Source: an uncultured Clostridia bacterium
GTDB lineage: Bacteria; Bacillota; Clostridia; Christensenellales; Borkfalkiaceae
Direction of reading: 5' to 3'
NCBI GenBank assembly: GCA_944328665.1
Contig: CALVHS010000030.1
Coordinates: 12,951-76,950, forward strand
DNA: 64,000 nt
The notes under the pieces were generated by a model. That model did not search any database. It saw only the letters and a list, made by a program, of their open reading frames with translations, and was not told the origin of the DNA. How positions within the stretch are numbered: position 1 is the first letter of the stretch; every line of letters begins with the position of its first letter. Both the position numbers and the translations under genes were made by a program. Shown here in pieces: positions 1 through 9,257 of the stretch.

Positions 1-1634
1 TCGCCTCGCTGATCGGCATCATTCAGCCCGCCTTTTCGCGCATCTTTCTGGATCGGCTCTTGACGGGGGAAAATCCGGACTGGCTGATCCCGTTTTTGGT
101 CGCGTTCGGCTTGCTGGCGGCGGTACAGCTCCTCATGGCATGGATACAAGCGGTGTGGTCGCTGCGGATCGACGGAAAGATGTCGGTGACGGGCAGCGCG
201 ACGTTCATGTGGAAGGTGCTGCGCATGCCGATGGTGTTTTTTTCGCAGCGCATGGCGGGGGACATCCAGCAGAGGGAGGGTTCGAATGCCAGCATTGCGG
301 GTTCCCTCGTCAACACGTTTGCCCCGCTCGTATTGGATACGGTCATGATGGTGTTTTACCTCGTCGTCATGCTCCGTTACAGCTGGATATTGACGCTCGT
401 CGGCATTGGCTCTATCCTCATCAACATGATCGTGGCGCGGCTGATATCGAAAAAGCGCGTCAACATCACCCGCGTGCAGATGCGCGACGCGGGCAAACTT
501 GCGGGCGCGTCGGTCGCCGGCATCGAGATGATCGAAACGATCAAGGCGAGCGGCGCCGAAAACGGCTATTTTGAAAAGTGGGCGGGCTATCAGGCGAGCG
601 TCAACACGCAGAAGGTCAAATTTTCCCGCCTCAACCAATATCTCGGGCTGATCCCCATGTTCGTTTCGAGCCTTTCCAATACGGCGGTTCTGGTCCTCGG
701 CGTGTGGCTGACCATGCAGGGGCAGTTCACGGTCGGCATGGTCATGGCGTTCCAAGGATTTTTGAACTCCTTTACCGCCCCCGCCGAAAAGCTCATCTCC
801 GCCGGTCAGACCCTGCAGGAGATGCGCACGGAAATGGAGCGGGTAGAGGACGTGATGCAGTACCCGACGGACGTCGAATTCACGGACGAAGGGGAGGACG
901 CCGAATACGACAAACTCAGCGGGCTCGTGGAGATGAAAAACGTCACGTTCGGCTATTCCAAACTCGCCCCGCCGCTCATTGAAAATTTCAACCTCACGTT
1001 AAAGCCGGGGAGCCGCGTGGCGTTCGTAGGGCCGTCCGGGTGCGGAAAGTCCACCCTTTCCAAGCTGATCTCCGGGCTGTATCGGCCGTGGAGCGGCGAG
1101 ATCCTGTTTGACGGAAAACCGATCTCCGCCATCGACCGCAGCGTGTTTACGGGTTCTCTGGCGGTCGTCGACCAGGATATCATCCTCTTTGAAGATACCA
1201 TCGCCAACAACATCAAGATGTGGGACTCGTCCATCGAAGATTTCGAGATGATCATGGCGGCGCGCGACGCAAAACTGCACGAGGATATCATGCAGCGCGA
1301 GGGCGGGTATCAATATAAGATCACGGAAGGCGGCAAAGATTTTTCGGGCGGGCAGCGCCAACGTATAGAGATCGCCCGCGTTCTTGCGCAGGATCCGACC
1401 ATCATCATCATGGACGAGGCGACGAGCGCGCTCGATGCAAAGACGGAATACGAGGTCGTAAATTCCATCAAGGAGCGGGGGATCACCTGCATCGTCGTGG
1501 CGCACAGGCTGTCCACCGTGCGTGACTGTGACGAGATCATCGTCATGGATAACGGCAGGGTGGTGGAACGCGGCACCCACGAAGAGCTCTATGCCTTGGG
1601 GGGCGCGTATACAAAACTTGTTTCCAGCGATTAA
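1..1634 (+). CDS. Bacteriocin/RiPP-type ABC exporter, permease + ATPase (N-terminus lies upstream of the window)
   Basis: The frame is open from the window edge (first full codon at nt 3), so the listed TTG at 60 is internal. A hydrophobic TMD is followed by an NBD with Walker A GPSGCGKST, signature FSGGQRQR and Walker B IIIMDEATSALD. The stop lies 9 nt before the SD+ATG of a second ABC gene. Confidence 0.9.
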   Translation, partial: ASLIGIIQPAFSRIFLDRLLTGENPDWLIPFLVAFGLLAAVQLLMAWIQAVWSLRIDGKMSVTGSATFMWKVLRMPMVFFSQRMAGDIQQREGSNASIAGSLVNTFAPLVLDTVMMVFYLVVMLRYSWILTLVGIGSILINMIVARLISKKRVNITRVQMRDAGKLAGASVAGIEMIETIKASGAENGYFEKWAGYQASVNTQKVKFSRLNQYLGLIPMFVSSLSNTAVLVLGVWLTMQGQFTVGMVMAFQGFLNSFTAPAEKLISAGQTLQEMRTEMERVEDVMQYPTDVEFTDEGEDAEYDKLSGLVEMKNVTFGYSKLAPPLIENFNLTLKPGSRVAFVGPSGCGKSTLSKLISGLYRPWSGEILFDGKPISAIDRSVFTGSLAVVDQDIILFEDTIANNIKMWDSSIEDFEMIMAARDAKLHEDIMQREGGYQYKITEGGKDFSGGQRQRIEIARVLAQDPTIIIMDEATSALDAKTEYEVVNSIKERGITCIVVAHRLSTVRDCDEIIVMDNGRVVERGTHEELYALGGAYTKLVSSD

Positions 1635-1643
1635 GGAGAGCAT

Positions 1644-3854
1644 ATGGGCTGGTTCGACGAACAAATAAAACAGAGAAAACAGAACGACGACGAGATGTTT
1701 GCCGAGGCGTTTGCGGGGATCGCGGGCGCGGTGACGGGAGAAAAGCTCTCGGCGCTCGACAGCGGCGAGCAGAGGACGAAAAACGCCGTCGGCGAGATCT
1801 TGCGCTATTATCGCGTCAAGCCGTGCGAGGTGCCCGATTCTGTCAAGGACATCAACGAGCGGTTGGAATATCTGCTGCGGCCGCACGGGATCATGCGCCG
1901 TACGGTCAAGCTGGAAAAGGGGTGGTACAAAGAGGCGGTCGGCGCGATGCTGGCGATCAAAAGATCGGACGGGTCTGCGGTGGCGCTGCTTCCGTCCGGC
2001 TTCGCGGGCTATACCTATTTCGACAGCGAAAAGGGCAAGCGTGTGCGGATCGATCGCAAGACGCAGGCGCTGTTCGAGGAGGAAGCGATCGCCTTTTATC
2101 CTTCGTTTCCTCTCAAAAAGATCGGGATGAAAGATCTGGCGGTGCATATCGTCAAGTCTCTGTCTGTCGCCGACTTTTTGCTGATCGCCCTGGCGTCGCT
2201 GGCGGTCGCCCTGGTGGGCTTGCTGTCGCCGAAATTGACGAACCTGCTCTTTTCCGACGTTTTGGAGAGCGGCAGCCTGCGGCTTTTGACGGCGATCGCC
2301 GTCTTTATGATCTGCGTGTCCGTCTCGTCCCTCTTGATCGGCGGCATAAAGTCTTTGCTGATGGCGCGCATCAACACCAAGATGGGCCTGTCCGTGCAGG
2401 CGGCGACGATGATGCGCATCCTCTCCCTCCCCGCCGATTTTTTCAAAGGATACAGCGCGGGCGACCTCGCTTCGCGCGCAAGCAACGTGCAGTCGCTGTG
2501 CAACATGCTCATATCCACCGTGCTTTCCACGGGGCTTACTTCGGTCTTTTCCGTGGTATACATCGGGCAGATCTTCGCCTATGCGCCCGCATTGGTGGCG
2601 CCCGCGCTCTTGGTGATCGCGGCGACGATCGTCGTTTCCATCCTGACCACGTATGCGCAGCTGCGGGTGAGCAGGCAGCAGATGCAGCTCGGCGCGGAAG
2701 AAAGCGGCTTGACGTACGCCCTCATTTCGGGCGTGCAGAAGATCAAACTGGCGGGCGCGGAAAAGCGCGCTTTTGCCAAATGGGGGAATCAGTTTGCGAA
2801 GTCTGCGCGCCTCGAATACGATCCTCCCGCGTTTTTGAAGTTCAACAGCGTCATCACTTCCGCCGTTTCTATGGCGGGAACGATCGCGATGTATTATTTT
2901 GCGGTGAAGAGCGGCGTCAGCGTCGCCGATTACTATGCGTTCAACGTCGCGTACGGCATGGTCTCGGGCGCGTTCATGTCTTTGGCGAGCATCGCATTGA
3001 CGGCGGCGAACATCAAACCCGTCTTTGAAATGATCAAACCCATCCTCGACGCCTGTCCGGAAGTTTCGGAAGGGAAGCGCGTCATCGAGCGCCTTTCGGG
3101 CGGGATCGAGCTCAACAACGTGAGCTTCCGCTATAACGAGAACATGCCGCCCGTCGTGGATAACCTGTCGCTGAAGATCCGCCCGGGGCAGTATGTCGCG
3201 CTCGTGGGCGCGACCGGGTGCGGAAAATCTACCCTTATGCGCCTGATGCTCGGCTTTGAAACGCCGCAAAAGGGGGCGATCTACTATGACGGCAAAGATC
3301 TTTCGTCCATCGATCTCAAATCGCTGCGCCGCAAGATCGGGGTCGTCATGCAGAACGGAAAGCTGTTTTCGGGCGACGTGTTCTCCAATATCACGATCTC
3401 CGCGCCCTGGCTGACGCTGGACGACGCGTGGGAAGCCGCAGAACTCGCGGGCATCGCCGAAGATATCCGCCGCATGCCGATGGGGATGCACACGATCATC
3501 TCCGAAGGTTCCGGCGGGGTGTCCGGCGGGCAGCGGCAGCGCCTGATGATCGCCCGCGCGATCGCGCCGAAACCCAAGGTGCTGATGTTCGACGAGGCGA
3601 CGAGCGCGCTCGATAATTTGACGCAAAAGAGGGTCTCGGACAGCCTGGATCGGCTGAAATGTACGAGGATCGTGATCGCGCACAGGCTTTCCACCATCCG
3701 CAGCTGCGACCGTATTTTGTATTTGGAAGGCGGCAAGATCATTGAGGACGGCAATTATGAAGAACTGATCGCCAAAGACGGAAAATTTGCCGAACTTGTC
3801 GCTCGGCAGCGGTTGGACGATACGGAATATGTGGGAAAGACGACGCTTTTTTGA
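1644..3854 (+). CDS. Second ABC exporter subunit, permease + ATPase with a ~165-aa N-terminal extension
   Basis: SD aaggagag precedes the ATG. The protein has an N-terminal soluble segment, then a TMD, then an NBD (GATGCGKST, VSGGQRQR, LMFDEATSALD). The paired arrangement with the upstream ABC gene resembles two-ABC NHLM/Nif11-type export sets (family names recalled, not searched). Confidence 0.9.
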   Translation: MGWFDEQIKQRKQNDDEMFAEAFAGIAGAVTGEKLSALDSGEQRTKNAVGEILRYYRVKPCEVPDSVKDINERLEYLLRPHGIMRRTVKLEKGWYKEAVGAMLAIKRSDGSAVALLPSGFAGYTYFDSEKGKRVRIDRKTQALFEEEAIAFYPSFPLKKIGMKDLAVHIVKSLSVADFLLIALASLAVALVGLLSPKLTNLLFSDVLESGSLRLLTAIAVFMICVSVSSLLIGGIKSLLMARINTKMGLSVQAATMMRILSLPADFFKGYSAGDLASRASNVQSLCNMLISTVLSTGLTSVFSVVYIGQIFAYAPALVAPALLVIAATIVVSILTTYAQLRVSRQQMQLGAEESGLTYALISGVQKIKLAGAEKRAFAKWGNQFAKSARLEYDPPAFLKFNSVITSAVSMAGTIAMYYFAVKSGVSVADYYAFNVAYGMVSGAFMSLASIALTAANIKPVFEMIKPILDACPEVSEGKRVIERLSGGIELNNVSFRYNENMPPVVDNLSLKIRPGQYVALVGATGCGKSTLMRLMLGFETPQKGAIYYDGKDLSSIDLKSLRRKIGVVMQNGKLFSGDVFSNITISAPWLTLDDAWEAAELAGIAEDIRRMPMGMHTIISEGSGGVSGGQRQRLMIARAIAPKPKVLMFDEATSALDNLTQKRVSDSLDRLKCTRIVIAHRLSTIRSCDRILYLEGGKIIEDGNYEELIAKDGKFAELVARQRLDDTEYVGKTTLF

Positions 3855-3969
3855 AAATTTTTTCAAAAAAGCCGTCCATCGGCGGCGCTCGCACGTATTA
3901 ATAATGGAAAGAAAAAACCGCTTCGGGAAAATTTTCGCGGGCAGATAAAGATCAGACACGGAGACAAAA

Positions 3970-4177
3970 ATGACGGAAGCAGACGAACAGCCGCTCGCAA
4001 AGGCGGCAAGATCCTCCGAAAAACCGATGGCTCTCGCCCAAGAAAACGGTATGTTCGGACGCGTTTGCAGCGGCGCGCAGATGCTGTCCGCCCCCCCCCG
4101 GGATATGTAGATCGTGCAAGTATAAGGCGTATGAAAAGGGACTGCGGGTGCGCAATGCCCCCGCAAATATAAAATAA
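3970..4177 (+). pseudogene. Decayed precursor-peptide copy (truncated leader plus Cys-less tail)
   Basis: The 46-codon ORF 3970-4110 reads ..PLAKAARSSEKPMALAQENGMF.., which parallels the leader segment EKARAAKSAKELMSLAKENGVEM. Nt 4115-4177 read CKYKAYEKGLRVRNAPANIK*, the conserved tail with its Cys residues replaced. The middle of the gene is missing. Confidence 0.7.
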
Positions 4178-4195
4178 GATATCGGAGGATACAAA

Positions 4196-4612
4196 ATGGA
4201 AAACGAGGAACTGATGGAAAAGGCAAGGGCGGCAAAGAGTGCCAAGGAGCTGATGTCTCTCGCCAAAGAAAACGGCGTGGAGATGACGGAAGAAGAGGCG
4301 CAGGCGTACTTTTCGCAGCTCAACAAGAGCGGCGAACTTGCCGACGACGAACTCGATTCGGTCGCGGGCGGCGGCTGCCATTCGGGCGGCGGCAAGCTGG
4401 TGGTCACCGTAGGCACCCAAAAGGACTGCTTTGTCTGCAAACACTGCGGCGCAACGGCGGAGAAAAACTTTGTCCCCGAGGGGCTCATGGCGATCACGGG
4501 GTATTCCCACTACTGCAAGGGGAAGAATATTATCTCCAACTGCGGTAACTGCAAATATTGCAACTACGAAAAAGGGCTTTGGGTGTGCAACAACCCCGTC
4601 AACATGAAGTAA
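4196..4612 (+). CDS. RiPP precursor P1: Nif11-like leader (aa 1-60, ..ELDSVAGGG) plus 78-aa core with 9 Cys
   Basis: SD ggagga precedes the ATG. The leader MENEELMEKARAAKSAKELMSLAKENGVEMTEEEAQAYFSQLNKSGELADDELDSVAGGG has the Nif11-leader look and a double-glycine end. The core contains CFVCKHC and CGNCKYC knuckles and the tail EKGLWVCNNPVNMK. Confidence 0.88.
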   Translation: MENEELMEKARAAKSAKELMSLAKENGVEMTEEEAQAYFSQLNKSGELADDELDSVAGGGCHSGGGKLVVTVGTQKDCFVCKHCGATAEKNFVPEGLMAITGYSHYCKGKNIISNCGNCKYCNYEKGLWVCNNPVNMK

Positions 4613-4633
4613 ATCATATCGGAGGATTTTAAG

Positions 4634-5011
4634 ATGGACGAAAAACTCATTGAAAGGGCAAGGGCGGCAAAGAGTGCCAAGGAGCTGATGTCTCTCGCCA
4701 AAGAAAGCGGCACGGAGATAACGGAAGAGGAGGCGCAGGCGTACTTTGCGCAGCTCAACAAGAGCGGCGAACTTGCCGACGAGGAGTTGGATAACGTCGC
4801 GGGCGGCGGCTGCCACGCAAAGGACGGCAGATTGGTGGTCACGATCCATTACAGCTGCGAACAGTTCGTCTGTAAGTCTTGCGGGCGTTCGGGCAAACAT
4901 ACCCACCACGTGGGCAACATCGTGACCGTTTACCCCGCCTGCGAGATCTGTAAATACTGCACCCATGAAAAGGGCTTGTGGCTTTGCAACAATCCCGCCA
5001 ATATAAAATAA
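4634..5011 (+). CDS. RiPP precursor P2: Nif11-like leader (aa 1-59) plus 66-aa core with 8 Cys
   Basis: SD ggagga precedes the ATG. The leader is nearly identical to P1 at the DNA level. The core contains CEQFVCKSC and CEICKYC, and the tail is EKGLWLCNNPANIK. Confidence 0.88.
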   Translation: MDEKLIERARAAKSAKELMSLAKESGTEITEEEAQAYFAQLNKSGELADEELDNVAGGGCHAKDGRLVVTIHYSCEQFVCKSCGRSGKHTHHVGNIVTVYPACEICKYCTHEKGLWLCNNPANIK

Positions 5012-5028
5012 AAAAGGAGAATACGAAA

Positions 5029-5463
5029 ATGGAAAACAAGGAACTTTTACAAAAGGCAAAAGAAGCGAAGTCTGCCGAAGAACTGATGACGATTGCCAAA
5101 GAAAACGGGGTGGAACTGACGGAAGAGGAGGCGTCGGAATATTTCGCGCGGCTGAATGTAAGCGGCGAACTTGCCGACGAGGAGTTGGATAACGTCGCGG
5201 GCGGCGGCTGCCAGACGAGCGTCAACGGAGAAAAATATACGGTCGTCACGTCGGGGCAGCGCTGTTTCAACGGCGGGTATGAAAACAACATCGAGACCGA
5301 ATTTTCCGTGAGCGGCAACGCCGTCAAGGTGCCCGCCTATACGACGGATCATTTGTCGCTGCGCTGTACGTGGTCAGATTTTTCGTCGGAAGGCTGCTGC
5401 GGATATTGCCGCCATCTGCAATTTAAGGGCGCCACGGGCTATTGCGGAAAATCTGCCAAGTAA
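5029..5463 (+). CDS. RiPP precursor P3: same leader (aa 1-60) plus a divergent 84-aa core with 7 Cys
   Basis: The internal ATG at 5029 is preceded by SD aaggaga, so the listed upstream start at 4978 overlaps the P2 tail and is unlikely. The leader ends ELDNVAGGG. The core (CQTSVNGEKYTVV...GCCGYCRHLQFKGATGYCGKSAK) lacks the P1/P2 tail motif. Confidence 0.85.
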   Translation: MENKELLQKAKEAKSAEELMTIAKENGVELTEEEASEYFARLNVSGELADEELDNVAGGGCQTSVNGEKYTVVTSGQRCFNGGYENNIETEFSVSGNAVKVPAYTTDHLSLRCTWSDFSSEGCCGYCRHLQFKGATGYCGKSAK

Positions 5464-5491
5464 AGAGCGGACGGCACGCAGGGCGGTGATT

Positions 5492-5607
5492 TGCTCTGCA
5501 AATTCTGCTGCGAGAGCGCTGCAGGCGTCAGATGCCGCCTGCAGCGACTGTAAATATTGCCCTCACAAAAAGGCCTGTGGTCCTGCGATGACACTGCAAA
5601 TATAAAT
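5492..5607 (+). pseudogene. Leaderless 3' remnant of a P1/P2-type core
   Basis: The remnant reads ..ACSDCKYCPHKK then shifts frame. Restoring one nt gives KKGLWSCDDTANI, which parallels CKYC..EKGLW.CNNP.NIK. No leader or start codon is present. Confidence 0.6.
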
Positions 5608-5622
5608 AAGGAAATCAAAACA

Positions 5623-6045
5623 ATGGCAAACAGCGAACTTATGGAAAAGGCAAAGCGGCAAAAAGCGCCTAAGAACTGATGACGATCGCCAAAGGAAACG
5701 GCATGGAACTTTCGGAAGAGGAGGCGGCAGCCTGCTTTGCGCAGCTCAACAAGAGCGGCGAACTTGCCGACGAGGAATTGGATAACGTCGCGGGCGGCGG
5801 CTGCGTGGCGACAGGGTTGTCGAAAATTGACGCGAATAACGAAGCCGGGCGACAGGATAACCATCACAGATGGTTATGAAAACAAACGGTGTAATATGCA
5901 GGAATGCAAAAACGTGATATTCGTGGTCGATCGCGTCGACGAATATAGTGTGCATTATCACTGCGAAAAGTGCGGGCGCGAGAGACTTAACGCGACATGT
6001 TATATTGAAATATTTATAAAGCATTGTTGCAACTCGGCATTTTAA
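5623..6045 (+). pseudogene. Fourth precursor copy, disrupted by a leader frameshift, an in-frame TAA and a core frameshift
   Basis: The ATG at 5623 gives MANSELMEKAK, then the frame slips. The continuing leader frame carries a TAA at 5670-5672 before ELMTIAKGNGMELSEEEAAACFAQLNKSGELADEELDNVAGGGC. After GGGC the plausible Cys-rich core (..ITITDGYENKRCNMQECKN...HYHCEKCG...KHCCNSAF*) continues in another frame to 6045. Confidence 0.7.
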
Positions 6046-7596: not shown

Positions 7597-7794
7597 ATGG
7601 ACAAACGTTTGAAACGGCTGTTTGATTTTCAGCGTTTTGCCGGCAACAGACGGCTTGCGGCGCTCATTGAGAGGGCCGAGTTTTCGCATGCCGAATCGCT
7701 TTCCGACGAGGATTTGGAAAAGGTCAGCGCGGCAGGGGATATCGATACGGCGCGCATCGGCAAGGAAGGCGAAGGGCAAAATGGCAACGAGTGA
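7597..7794 (+). CDS. Small hypothetical protein (65 aa) with a leader-like ..SLSDEDLEKVSAAG.. motif
   Basis: SD aagggg lies 6 nt before the ATG. The composition looks coding. The 3' end overlaps the next gene's ATG by 14 nt. Confidence 0.6.
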   Translation: MDKRLKRLFDFQRFAGNRRLAALIERAEFSHAESLSDEDLEKVSAAGDIDTARIGKEGEGQNGNE

Positions 7795-8275
7795 ACATAC
7801 AATGGAGCAGATCTATAGGGAATACAGCGGCAAAGTGCTGCGGTATGCGCGCTCCAAGATATCCAACCCGCAGGATGCGGAAGATATCTGTTCCGCCGTG
7901 TTTTTAAAGATACAGCGCGGCCTGCCCCTCTATGACAGCGCAAGGTCGTCGCTTTCGACATGGATCTATTCGATCGCGCACAATGCCGTCGTCGATTTTT
8001 ACAGAAGGGCGCATGCGGCGGAACTATTGGATGAAGAGATCGCCTGTACGGAGGACGGCTTCGAAGATATCTATCGCGACGAGATGCTGGAAGCGCTCGC
8101 CGCCGCGCTGGAACGCCTGCCGCCGCGTGAAAGTGACGTCATCATATTGCATTACTATACGGGGAAAACGCTGAAAGAGATCGCGGATTTAATGAAAATG
8201 TCCTATTCAAACATGAAATCTCTGCACAAAAAGGCGCTTTCGCGGCTGAAAAAATTGCTGCAATTTGCGATATGA
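7781..8275 (+). CDS. ECF-type sigma-70 family RNA polymerase sigma factor (164 aa)
   Basis: A region 2-like segment (DAEDICSAVFLKIQRGL..WIYSIAHNAVVDFYRR) and a region 4 HTH (LPPRESDVIILHYYTGKTLKEIADLMKMSYSNMKSLHKKALSRLK) are present. The start is taken at the internal ATG at 7781 (MATSEHTMEQIY), because the longer listed ORF is Arg-rich upstream. Confidence 0.85.
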   Translation: MATSEHTMEQIYREYSGKVLRYARSKISNPQDAEDICSAVFLKIQRGLPLYDSARSSLSTWIYSIAHNAVVDFYRRAHAAELLDEEIACTEDGFEDIYRDEMLEALAAALERLPPRESDVIILHYYTGKTLKEIADLMKMSYSNMKSLHKKALSRLKKLLQFAI

Positions 8276-8411
8276 CCGATGCGGCGCGCCTTAGCCGTCG
8301 ATGGCGCGTGGGCACTTTTGCCCGGCCGCGGACATTGGCGGTTTTTTTGTGCCCTCTTTTTTGAAGAAGGGCAAAGGGCCGGATGTGCCCGTCGTCCGTT
8401 TTTTTGTCCGC

Positions 8412-8477: not shown

Positions 8478-9257
8478 ATGTTGAGCAAAGTAGAGATCTG
8501 CGGTGTAGATACGGCAGGGTTGCCCCTCTTATCCGCAAAGGAAAGCGACGAATTGATGAGGAGGCTCAAGGAAGGGGATCAAGAAGCGCGCAAACGGTTT
8601 ATAGTGGGCAATATGCGGCTCGTTTTGTCTCTCGTCAAGCGTTTTTGGGCGAAAAATGCCAACGCCGACGACGTGTTTCAAGCGGGCTGCATCGGTCTTT
8701 TAAAGGCGATCGACGGGTTTGATCCCAACCTCGGCGTGCGGTTTTCCACGTACGGGGTGCCGATGATCTTAGGGGAGATCAAGCGCTATTTGCGGGACGG
8801 GAATTCGCTGCGGGTATCGAGGAGCATCCGCGACACGGCGTATAAAGTCCTAAAAGCGCGCGAAAGCATCGAAAGCCGCGACGAGGAGGCGACCATCGAA
8901 AAGATCGCCGCCGAGATGAACGTGCGCGAAAAAGAGGTGGTCTACGCCTTGGATGCGATCTCCGATCCTGTATCCCTTTTCGATCCTGTCTATAACAAAT
9001 CGGGGGACACTCTCCTCTTGATGGATCAGATCTACGACGAAAAGAACAACGACGAGGTGTGGACGGAACATGCCGCCTTGGCGGAGGCGATGGCGCGCCT
9101 CGGGGAAAGGGAGCGCAAGATCTTGTTTTTACGCTACTTTGAGGGCAAGACGCAGACGGAGATCTCCGGTGAAGTGGGCATTTCGCAGGCGCAGGTATCA
9201 CGCCTCGAAAAGAGCGCGATCGACACCATCCGCCGCGATATCGCCTATGAATTTTAA
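8478..9257 (+). CDS. sigG: Sporulation sigma factor SigG
   Basis: The protein has an N-terminal KVEICGVDT signature. GNMRLVLSLVKRF, FSTYGVPMILGEIKRYLRD and ISQAQVSRLEKSAI closely parallel B. subtilis SigG along its full length. Confidence 0.9.
   Translation: MLSKVEICGVDTAGLPLLSAKESDELMRRLKEGDQEARKRFIVGNMRLVLSLVKRFWAKNANADDVFQAGCIGLLKAIDGFDPNLGVRFSTYGVPMILGEIKRYLRDGNSLRVSRSIRDTAYKVLKARESIESRDEEATIEKIAAEMNVREKEVVYALDAISDPVSLFDPVYNKSGDTLLLMDQIYDEKNNDEVWTEHAALAEAMARLGERERKILFLRYFEGKTQTEISGEVGISQAQVSRLEKSAIDTIRRDIAYEF

Follow-up and report, generated by a model that had tools for sequence, protein, structure and literature searches.

Clusters that combine NHLP/Nif11-type precursors with a radical S-adenosylmethionine (SAM) enzyme and a C39-peptidase ATP-binding cassette (ABC) transporter have been described from anaerobes as putative systems whose cores have at most 59 residues (Letzel et al. 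2014, PMC4289311), and spliceotide loci (PlpA/PlpX/PlpY) likewise pair Nif11/NHLP leaders with a SPASM radical SAM enzyme (PMC11002830). Here we describe a locus of analogous make-up in a stretch of 64,000 nucleotides from an uncultured Clostridia bacterium (GenBank assembly GCA_944328665.1, contig CALVHS010000030.1, positions 12,951 to 76,950), which is referred to below as the window and whose own numbering is used throughout. The locus holds three consecutive genes, P1, P2 and P3, which by their sequences are intact Nif11-leader precursors. The best reading of these sequences is that they encode the precursors of secreted mini-proteins of ~65-85 residues rather than short peptide antibiotics. 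A preliminary description, made from the letters of the same DNA, had drawn attention to their Cys-rich cores, and no published account of the family was found.

The first ~60 residues of P1, P2 and P3 matched the Nif11-like leader family TIGR03798, P3 with 36.0 bits, above the cutoff of 32.3, and P1 and P2 with 31.9 and 31.4 bits, slightly under it. A profile of the precursor family matched the solved Nif11 domain 9zn4_A (1e-5) in a profile search of the Protein Data Bank (PDB), in which nothing beyond the Nif11 leader was matched. A GGAGG-type ribosome-binding site lies ahead of each gene, and the start of P3 is ATG 5029, which lies inside a longest open reading frame (ORF) opening at GTG 4978. 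All three leaders end in the double-glycine sequence ..ELD[SN]VAGG followed by GC, which is also present in a decayed fourth precursor, psi-P4. The leader DNA of the three genes is 76-88% identical and contains identical stretches of 50-53 nt, and the core DNA is 47-55% identical.

The P1 core is laid out as G-C-H, a KLVVT strand, CFVCKHCG, an insert with H-Y-C, and CGNCKYC-x8-C-NNPVNMK. The P2 core has G-C-H, RLVVT, C-x4-C-x2-C-G, an insert with H-T-H-H, and CEICKYC-x8-C-NNPANIK, and the core family of P3 has the pattern GC.T..G..YTVVTS..CF.G.Y, then LR..W, then CG.C.HL.F.G..GYC. The motifs quoted in the preliminary description, namely CFVCKHC and CGNCKYCNYEKGLWVCNNPVNMK in P1, CEQFVCKSC and CEICKYCTHEKGLWLCNNPANIK in P2, and GCCGYCRHLQFKGATGYCGKSAK at the C-terminus of P3, are all present in the sequence.

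Searching with P1 identified at least 245 full-length homologs at E <= 1e-3, almost all from gut metagenomes and either unnamed or annotated as 'Nif11-like leader RiPP precursor' (RiPP, a peptide made by ribosomes and modified after translation); the 120 listed had E values from 1e-82 to 4e-29. One P1-type precursor occurred on 206 contigs. Throughout the family the double glycine is followed by a core of the form G-C-[HY]-x2-3-G-[RK]-L-V-V-[TS], x3-4, C-x4-C-x2-C-G, a variable insert and C-x2-C-x11-C-N-N-P-x-N-x-K. The preliminary description had staked its view on the tail motif and the knuckle spacing being conserved in homologous loci, and these homologs showed that they are. The two motifs it had proposed as common to P1 and P2 held in part. 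Its early C-x2-C-x2-C is found in P1 (CFVCKHC) but not in P2 or the family consensus, which have C-x4-C-x2-C(G), the first Cys being shifted in the P1 subgroup; its tail C-x2-C-x2-C-x8-C is found in P1 and P2, but family-wide C-x2-C-x11-C alone is invariant and the middle Cys of 'CxxCxxC' occurs in about half of the members. 'CxxCxxC' was rejected as a conserved unit, its middle or third Cys being optional, and a universal '1 + even' Cys rule was rejected because an abundant 10-Cys subgroup breaks it. A profile of the P1/P2 core, run against 1.84 billion representative proteins, matched 90 of them, almost all 90-150 aa long and with the match after a ~60-aa leader, indicating that the domain is confined to these precursors; this search found no other protein context hinting at a function.

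The P3 core, which the preliminary description considered unrelated, turned out to belong to a second conserved family. A word-indexed homolog search with this core yielded 8 close matches, and conserved cores of this type occur in at least 8 further loci (alignment A4). P3 shares with P1 and P2 the junction GC, the VVT strand, the next Cys and the C-x2-C-x11-C tail, and its tail matched the P1/P2 profile in hhalign (E 9e-5, probability 59%). The shared junction, strand and tail spacing together with the profile match suggest that P3 is a divergent relative.

Related loci were collected through the radical SAM/SPASM enzyme encoded 3' of the precursors. A scan of one genome per species produced 179 confirmed relatives, from which 80 loci were kept; together with four loci reached through the P1 homolog P0093 and the window itself, 85 loci were examined. 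Nearly all hosts of the kept loci are titled gut or rumen Clostridia, and a few bins are titled otherwise (Phocaeicola, Eggerthellaceae and Ornithospirochaeta); cultured carriers of the enzyme family are Sporofaciens musculi, Petralouisia muris and strain D16-36. The contigs of three independently chosen P1 homologs (P0093, P0062 and P0105) showed the same gene order, comprising a ~158-aa membrane protein, a C39-peptidase ABC subunit (ABC1), a second ABC subunit (ABC2), the precursor array, the radical SAM/SPASM enzyme, a small ORF and a sigma factor. The arrays of homologous loci contain up to eight or nine genes. A hidden Markov model of the leader detected 227 leader-bearing ORFs, spread over 75 of the 85 loci and mostly lying directly 5' of the enzyme gene, and clustering of all larger ORFs across the loci revealed no second conserved tailoring enzyme. 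The radical SAM/SPASM enzyme is the sole conserved tailoring enzyme of this locus type. The connection to export proposed in the preliminary description is upheld by the Nif11 double-glycine leaders, the NHLP-type ABC pair 5' of them and the same architecture in homologous loci, and the shared gene order suggests that the cores are tied to the export machinery and are not unrelated cytoplasmic zinc-ribbon proteins, an outcome that description had also entertained.

About one third of the leader-bearing ORFs carry a P1/P2-type core. The other types are the P3 type, a C..CKYW...C.NP.N type and many textbook CPxCG...CxxCG zinc ribbons. Some Lachnospiraceae and Christensenellaceae loci encode Nif11-leader precursors 3' of the radical SAM gene in which a C-x-C-[VI]-x-GGGG-like sequence occurs three times (L009:12146-13012, L010:11642-13037, L013:12146-13046 and L036:12817-13654). 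These triple-repeat cores have a classical ring-forming look and may be where thioether chemistry by the enzyme family is best sought. In another group a GCGGGG(S) linker after the cleavage site leads into an SH3/KOW-like domain with few or zero further Cys (L034:2267-4595, L050:7941-8327, L050:9402-9794 and L031:804-1238), and the junction Cys and Gly/Ser linker of these precursors recall lipoprotein N-termini. Short double-glycine-leader peptides whose leader is not Nif11-type and which have no junction Cys were also observed (L001:8487-9180 and L001:14411-14668); their cores are plain CxxC...CxxC zinc-ribbon-like sequences, such as ..CKGCG..x13..CDEC.. and ..CPQCG..CPYC...

In P1, P2 and P3 the core begins with a Cys directly after VAGGG, as the preliminary description had stated; that this is a feature of the whole system had not been seen. 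Among 194 non-redundant cores of all types, 141 (73%) have a Cys at +2 after the double glycine and 176 (91%) have one within +1 to +4, at an overall Cys content of 9.7%. Thirteen cores contain a single Cys, and in the few full-length (SH3-like) ones among them it is the junction Cys. A Cys near the double-glycine site is the only feature shared by every core type found with this enzyme family. Since it is absent from the non-Nif11 double-glycine-leader peptides of the same loci, the junction Cys appears to be tied to the leader-enzyme pair and not to the exporter, and since it is common to all core types, it is the most likely candidate for the residue on which the radical SAM enzyme acts.

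We investigated the spacing of the remaining Cys and His residues. CxxC was by far the most frequent Cys spacing across the cores. Gly follows CxxC in 38% of cases against a background of 11%, and Pro is the first inner residue in 16% against 3.5%, a pattern that at the sequence level is the classical knuckle signature. About 12 residues C-terminal of the C-x2-C-G knuckle, a [C/H]-x(1-2)-[C/H] pair was present in the variable insert of 109 of the 113 P1/P2-type cores, compared with 46 +/- 5 (maximum 59) for shuffled inserts. Of these ligand pairs, 47 are CxxC, 30 HxH and 23 HxC, each kind being spread over 8-15 clusters at 55% identity, and Cys and His interchange (CxxC/HxH/HxC) at this one four-ligand site across at least 33 lineages; P1 has H-Y-C and P2 has H-T-H-H. 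HxH was found in 31 of the 32 Cys-free inserts and in 8 of the 81 Cys-bearing ones (Fisher 3e-19, uncorrected for phylogeny). In a CKDDG group the second knuckle Cys is lost and an extra Cys is gained in the insert, and six short variants lack the pair and both knuckle Cys at once. A four-ligand metal site would be expected to show such interchange of Cys with His, a kept number of ligands and all-or-none loss, whereas thioether donors or disulfides would not.

P1 and P2 both show the ligand layout of a zinc ribbon, with CKHCG plus H-Y-C and CGNC in P1 and CKSCG plus H-T-H-H and CEIC in P2. AlphaFold2 predicted an all-beta fold for the unmodified P2 core from a 50-sequence alignment, with a mean predicted local distance difference test score (pLDDT) of 89.3, a predicted template modelling score (pTM) of 0.67 and a pLDDT of 90 for the N-terminal ten residues. 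The metal-knuckle view of the preliminary description is strengthened by the ligand-pair interchange, the Gly/Pro signature and the predicted P2 fold, and it falls short in that no zinc-ribbon family or fold was matched, as detailed below.

The radical SAM/SPASM enzyme contains CX3CX2C (residues 100/104/107) and, in its C-terminal part, eight conserved Cys, sufficient for two auxiliary clusters. Its homologs comprised 1664 cluster representatives at E <= 1e-20. The N-terminal 90 residues are conserved (mean identity of the window's residue 0.59), and residues 1-97 gave no RRE or PqqD match in Pfam at E <= 10. No NCBIfam family was reached at its cutoff, the best being AhbD (134 vs 500 bits), and the thioether-maturase families StsB (101/625 bits), PapB (74/340) and nif11-class maturase 3 (80/725) all scored below theirs. 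Among solved structures, the single-thioether synthase SkfB is nearest (E 1.7e-12), and a match to anaerobic sulfatase-maturating enzymes (anSME) was limited to the SPASM part (E 3e-4). Two known classes were tried and rejected for P1 to P3. They are not spliceotides, as their cores contain no X-Y-G motif or 'YG' dipeptide and the loci hold no conserved PlpY-like partner, and they are not SCIFF ranthipeptides, as they gave no match to TIGR03973 in an NCBIfam scan at E <= 0.01, the family on which the antiSMASH 'ranthipeptide' rule is based (PMC13289728).

From the gene content, the conservation, the statistics of the ligand patterns and the fold prediction, we infer metal binding by the cores, the site and chemistry of a modification, and cleavage and export, in the following way. 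The Nif11-type leader would serve as a handle for both the radical SAM/SPASM enzyme and the C39-peptidase ABC pair. The enzyme would be recruited by the leader in the cytoplasm and act on or beside the junction Cys, the most probable reaction being the formation of one Cys-to-carbon thioether (sactionine- or ranthionine-type) as a staple near the new N-terminus, as made by SkfB in the sporulation killing factor (SKF). The ABC pair would cut after VAGG and then export the core. The P1/P2 core would be a small beta-rich domain with two four-ligand metal sites, most likely for zinc. Site 1 would consist of the C-x2-C-G knuckle and the [C/H]-x-[C/H] pair of the variable insert, and site 2, common to P3 and other core types, of the Cys after the first strand and C-x2-C-x11-C; P3 would be a relative having site 2 alone and hence one metal site. 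A single enzyme and a single exporter would thereby handle an array whose cores diversify while the leaders are conserved, and the array is probably expressed under the extracytoplasmic function (ECF) sigma factor of the locus. We hold this account, of secreted mini-metalloproteins that are processed by a leader-directed enzyme and a C39 ABC exporter and whose junction Cys is the likely target of the enzyme, only tentatively, but it may well be correct. A broader form is a serious possibility, if a somewhat unlikely one: instead of building a peptide antibiotic, the RiPP machinery might secrete a fast-diversifying library of metal-binding mini-proteins that fold on their own (zinc-ribbon-like, two-site and SH3-like), with the single invariant junction Cys receiving a new N-terminal modification, be it a staple, a tether or a reactive group, that is common to all cargo.

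Several results weigh against the proposal of secreted mini-metalloproteins. A Pfam search of the three cores at E <= 10 gave no significant zinc-ribbon family, with zf-B_box (0.0099), Zn_ribbon_LapB (0.14) and Zn_ribbon_10 (1.1) all far below cutoff. Foldseek found no structure similar to the P2-core model (best E 5.6 in PDB and 1.7 in BFVD), which is a weak negative because small domains are hard for Foldseek. Site 2 shows zero His substitution, so that a role of its four Cys as thioether donors or in disulfides is equally conceivable. A further tail Cys, carried by P1, P2 and altogether about half of the P1/P2-type cores, lies outside the two-site scheme. The junction Cys region is confidently placed in the P2 model, where this Cys may belong to a site instead of being free, and the AlphaFold2 model of the P3 core, built from a shallow 8-sequence alignment, was uninformative (pLDDT 34). 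The likeness of the enzyme to SkfB is weak and confined to the radical SAM core.

If most or all core Cys became thioethers, P1 to P3 would be multiply bridged RiPPs, that is, very long sactipeptides or ranthipeptides of a new knotted topology in which CxxC reflects the placement of donors. A SPASM radical SAM protein as the sole tailoring enzyme beside Cys-rich precursors is consistent with this explanation, as are the presence of SkfB (PDB) and of StsB and PapB (NCBIfam) among the weak best matches of the enzyme, Cys counts without a parity rule and the ring-forming look of the cores with three C-x-C-V-x-GGGG repeats in some related loci. CxxC donors are present in subtilosin A and thurincin H; this donor spacing also favours multiple thioethers, and it weakens the argument of the preliminary description that CxxC spacing is unlike that of sactipeptides. 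However, interchange of Cys with His, compensation in ligand count and all-or-none loss of a module are unexpected for thioether donors, and the Gly/Pro knuckle signature and the confident predicted fold of the unmodified P2 core also argue for another role of these residues. Moreover, single-Cys and SH3-like cores use the same leader and enzyme, and every curated thioether-maturase family scored far below cutoff. We regard multiple bridging as unlikely, though by no means negligible. Disulfides would be another use for Cys at 9.7% of core residues, and double-glycine leaders beside a peptidase-containing ABC exporter are also the arrangement of class II bacteriocins, so that the products might be disulfide-rich secreted toxins or bacteriocins, exported unmodified or with minor modification; the minimal conserved Cys sets minus the junction Cys are even (6 in the P1/P2 type and 4 in the P3 type). 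Of the 194 cores, however, 94 have an odd and 100 an even total of Cys (9 in P1, 8 in P2 and 7 in P3), and His replaces Cys pairwise at one site. Strict disulfide pairing was rejected on Cys parity and His substitution, and the disulfide-only option of the preliminary description is disfavoured on the same grounds. The producers are, in addition, strict gut anaerobes, in whose surroundings extracellular disulfide formation is presumably not favoured, and the always-present radical SAM enzyme would be left without a role. Disulfide-rich toxins are very improbable.

The enzyme might instead carry out a different radical reaction at the junction, with the metal-binding cores as cargo domains that the altered N-terminus serves to display or deliver. 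It could form formylglycine in the manner of anSME, create a lipid or other tether, or modify a neighbouring residue while the Cys binds an auxiliary cluster. That the junction Cys is near-universal, that some cores have the GCGGGGS.. linker followed by an SH3-like fold, which is the layout of a lipoprotein N-terminus, and that the enzyme lies outside every curated functional family would all agree with such a reaction. The recognition motif of anSME is C/S-x-P/A-x-R, and it is absent after the junction Cys; the resemblance of the enzyme to anSME involves the SPASM part only, no lipid-handling gene is conserved in the loci, and no precedent was found in the literature. We consider a reaction of this kind quite improbable. 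Finally, P1 to P3 might be plain leader-tagged exported proteins on which the enzyme is inactive, serving other substrates or only some members of the arrays. The great diversity of the cores, the presence of double-glycine-leader peptides without a Nif11 leader in related loci and the failure to detect an RRE domain by sequence in enzyme residues 1-97 would be expected in that case. Yet Nif11-leader ORFs occur in 75 of the 85 loci, usually directly 5' of the enzyme gene and in the same order around the three P1 homologs, the N-terminal 90 residues of the enzyme are conserved (0.59), and the junction Cys follows the Nif11 leader and not the exporter. We give inactivity of the enzyme on P1 to P3 very little credence, and the proposal of mini-metalloproteins with a modified junction Cys remains the one we prefer.

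The intact precursor genes are flanked by three decayed copies (Table 1), which were missing from the precursors listed in the preliminary description. In psi-0 the leader N-terminus is fused to the core C-terminus as a result of an internal deletion and a frameshift, with the tail CRSCKYKAYEKGLRVRNAPANIK, and its segment VCSGAQMLSAPP..CRSCKYK is similar to the homologs P0005 and P0006. The core of psi-P4 is of a third type, ..PGDRITI..C.....C..IFVVDR......YHCEKCG, as in L008:9572-9982. The kept leaders, diverging cores and decayed copies suggest that the array evolves by birth and death, and sequencing error could be a source of the frameshifts in the three decayed paralogs.

Table 1. Features of the precursor locus and their positions in the window.
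Feature	Position	Strand	Basis or remarks
NHLP-type exporter subunit 1 (ABC1: peptidase/permease/ATPase), C-terminal 543 aa	3-1634	+	TIGR03796, ABC_membrane, ABC_tran
NHLP bacteriocin export ABC transporter subunit 2 (ABC2: permease/ATPase, without peptidase)	1644-3854	+	TIGR03797
A/T-rich palindrome, near-perfect, 12-bp stem	3845-3872	.	Pattern scan; GCTTTTTTGAAAAAATTTTCAAAAAAGC
psi-0, decayed P1/P2-type precursor	3970-4174	+	tblastn, three-frame translation
P1 precursor	4196-4612	+	138 aa; leader 4196-4372 ending VAGG; core 4373-4609, 79 aa, 9 Cys
P2 precursor	4634-5011	+	125 aa; leader 4634-4807; core 4808-5008, 67 aa, 8 Cys
P3 precursor	5029-5463	+	144 aa; leader 5029-5205; core 5206-5460, 85 aa, 7 Cys
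Frameshifted remnant, P1/P2-type core C-terminus	5473-5605	+	..CSDCKYCPHKK / QKGLWSCDDTANINK
psi-P4, decayed fourth precursor	5623-6045	+	In-frame stop and frameshifts in leader, then ..NVAGGGC..
Radical SAM/SPASM enzyme, 465 aa	6050-7447	+	Pfam Radical_SAM PF04055 72 bits, SPASM PF13186 28 bits
Conserved 65-aa protein with leader-like ..LSDEDLEKVSAAGD.. motif	7597-7794	+	Homologs at same position in 30 related loci
ECF-type sigma-70 family factor	7802-8275	+	TIGR02937 105.8 bits; ORF 7622-8275
Terminator-like hairpins	8324-8398		3' of sigma gene; pattern scan

The two ABC genes 5' of the array present the paired ABC1 and ABC2 by which the NHLP/Nif11 bacteriocin export system is defined. The part of ABC1 that is present, 543 residues, matched profile positions 168-709 of TIGR03796 with 708.7 bits. 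Its N-terminal C39 peptidase domain falls outside the window start, and the full-length ABC1 orthologs in L001, L085 and L087 bear PF03412 Peptidase_C39. ABC2 matched TIGR03797 with 748 bits and exceeded the cutoff of 709.4. The palindrome at the end of ABC2 spans its stop codon and is conspicuous against the 59% GC of the window; from its sequence it could be a terminator or an operator. A 1078-aa antisense ORF (999-4235) that overlaps the ABC genes was dismissed as an artefact of GC content. Genes for partner-switching regulators (a SpoIIE-type PP2C phosphatase, a HATPase_c_2 anti-sigma kinase and a STAS protein) lie 5' of ABC1 in L001-L004, L085 and L087. A GH3-family adenylating enzyme and a MatE transporter are encoded in subsets of the loci (~6 and ~10, respectively; e.g. 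L087:13853-15529 and L041:13231-14808), and the GH3 enzyme could provide an extra tailoring step in the loci that carry its gene. No immunity gene was evident.

Between the radical SAM and sigma genes lies the gene for the 65-aa protein, and homologs of 62-65 aa occupy this place in related loci (e.g. L085:14149-14346 and L017:11389-11577), with the consensus ..LFD[FY]Q[RK]F..N.RL...I...E......LSD[DE][DE]L..V.AAG[DE]... The C-terminal half of the protein resembles a double-glycine leader (ELSDEELDNVAGG), but it has AAG and is followed by no core. From its sequence the protein is a candidate regulator or anti-sigma factor. It may be speculated that it acts as a decoy, cut or exported by the peptidase-exporter, and so couples secretion to transcription. 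The ECF-type sigma factor, whose true start is probably ATG 7802 within the longer ORF, is 49% identical to the product of the sigma gene 3' of the radical SAM gene in L017, and a sigma factor of the same cluster was present in 31 of 82 loci. A scan for sigma-70 promoters gave background level only. Directly 3' of the locus is a gene for the sporulation sigma factor SigG (8478-9257, plus strand; NF006071 371.3 bits, cutoff 372), which indicates that the host is a spore-forming member of the Clostridia. The genes beyond the sigma factor are housekeeping genes, encoding SigG, a cysteine desulfurase family protein, Nth, Obg and GlyRS.

Among Clostridia of the gut and rumen the system is common, yet its enzyme and cores lie outside every curated family. 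Should the cores prove to be folded domains that bind metal, the reach of ribosomal natural-product machinery would extend from peptides to small secreted proteins. The junction Cys offers a defined candidate target for a radical SAM enzyme of unassigned chemistry, and the model predicts two metal sites per core for P1 and P2 and a single one for P3. Because cultured carriers exist, experiments on the system are feasible. Diversifying arrays of secreted mini-proteins with a sigma factor of their own suggest that the products take part in competition between anaerobes of the gut or in signalling among them.

Among known systems, the prochlorosins of marine cyanobacteria and their enzyme ProcM resemble the locus in having Nif11-type double-glycine leaders, multiple precursor genes whose leaders are conserved and cores hypervariable, one tailoring enzyme and a peptidase-containing ABC exporter. 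The enzyme of the locus, however, is a radical SAM/SPASM protein, whereas ProcM is a LanM; the hosts are gut Clostridia; and the cores have 65-85 residues, are beta-rich and predicted to fold, and carry a Cys/His ligand pattern and an invariant junction Cys. Sactipeptides and ranthipeptides (SkfA/SkfB, subtilosin/AlbA, ruminococcin C, SCIFF/CteB and freyrasin/PapB) likewise have a SPASM/Twitch radical SAM gene beside Cys-containing precursors, and the single N-terminal Cys-to-carbon staple of SKF resembles the reaction proposed for the junction Cys. The present system differs from them in its Nif11-type leader, in an enzyme that reaches no curated maturase family at cutoff, and in cores that are 2-3x longer and behave like a metal site at one position.

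The cores share with zinc ribbons and rubredoxin-like knuckles the paired CxxC motifs 10-40 residues apart, the Gly after the second Cys, the frequent inner Pro and the interchange of Cys and His, and many sister cores are textbook CPxCG...CxxCG sequences that follow the junction Cys. A typical zinc ribbon is a cytoplasmic binder of nucleic acids or proteins, whereas the P1/P2 cores are leader-tagged for export. In the QhpC/QhpD system of quinohemoprotein amine dehydrogenase, a SPASM radical SAM enzyme acts on a leader-bearing Cys substrate of ~80 residues that has a dedicated ABC export route, and this modification, processing and ABC export of a protein-sized polypeptide is much like what is proposed for P1 to P3. 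QhpC becomes a subunit of an enzyme and carries three Cys-Asp/Glu thioethers together with a quinone cofactor; it is encoded by a single gene without a Nif11 leader, whereas the precursors described here form a diversifying array with Nif11 leaders. Exported precursors with a Nif11 leader and an associated radical SAM enzyme are of a known kind, and what is unusual here is that the cores are protein-like and probably metal-binding.

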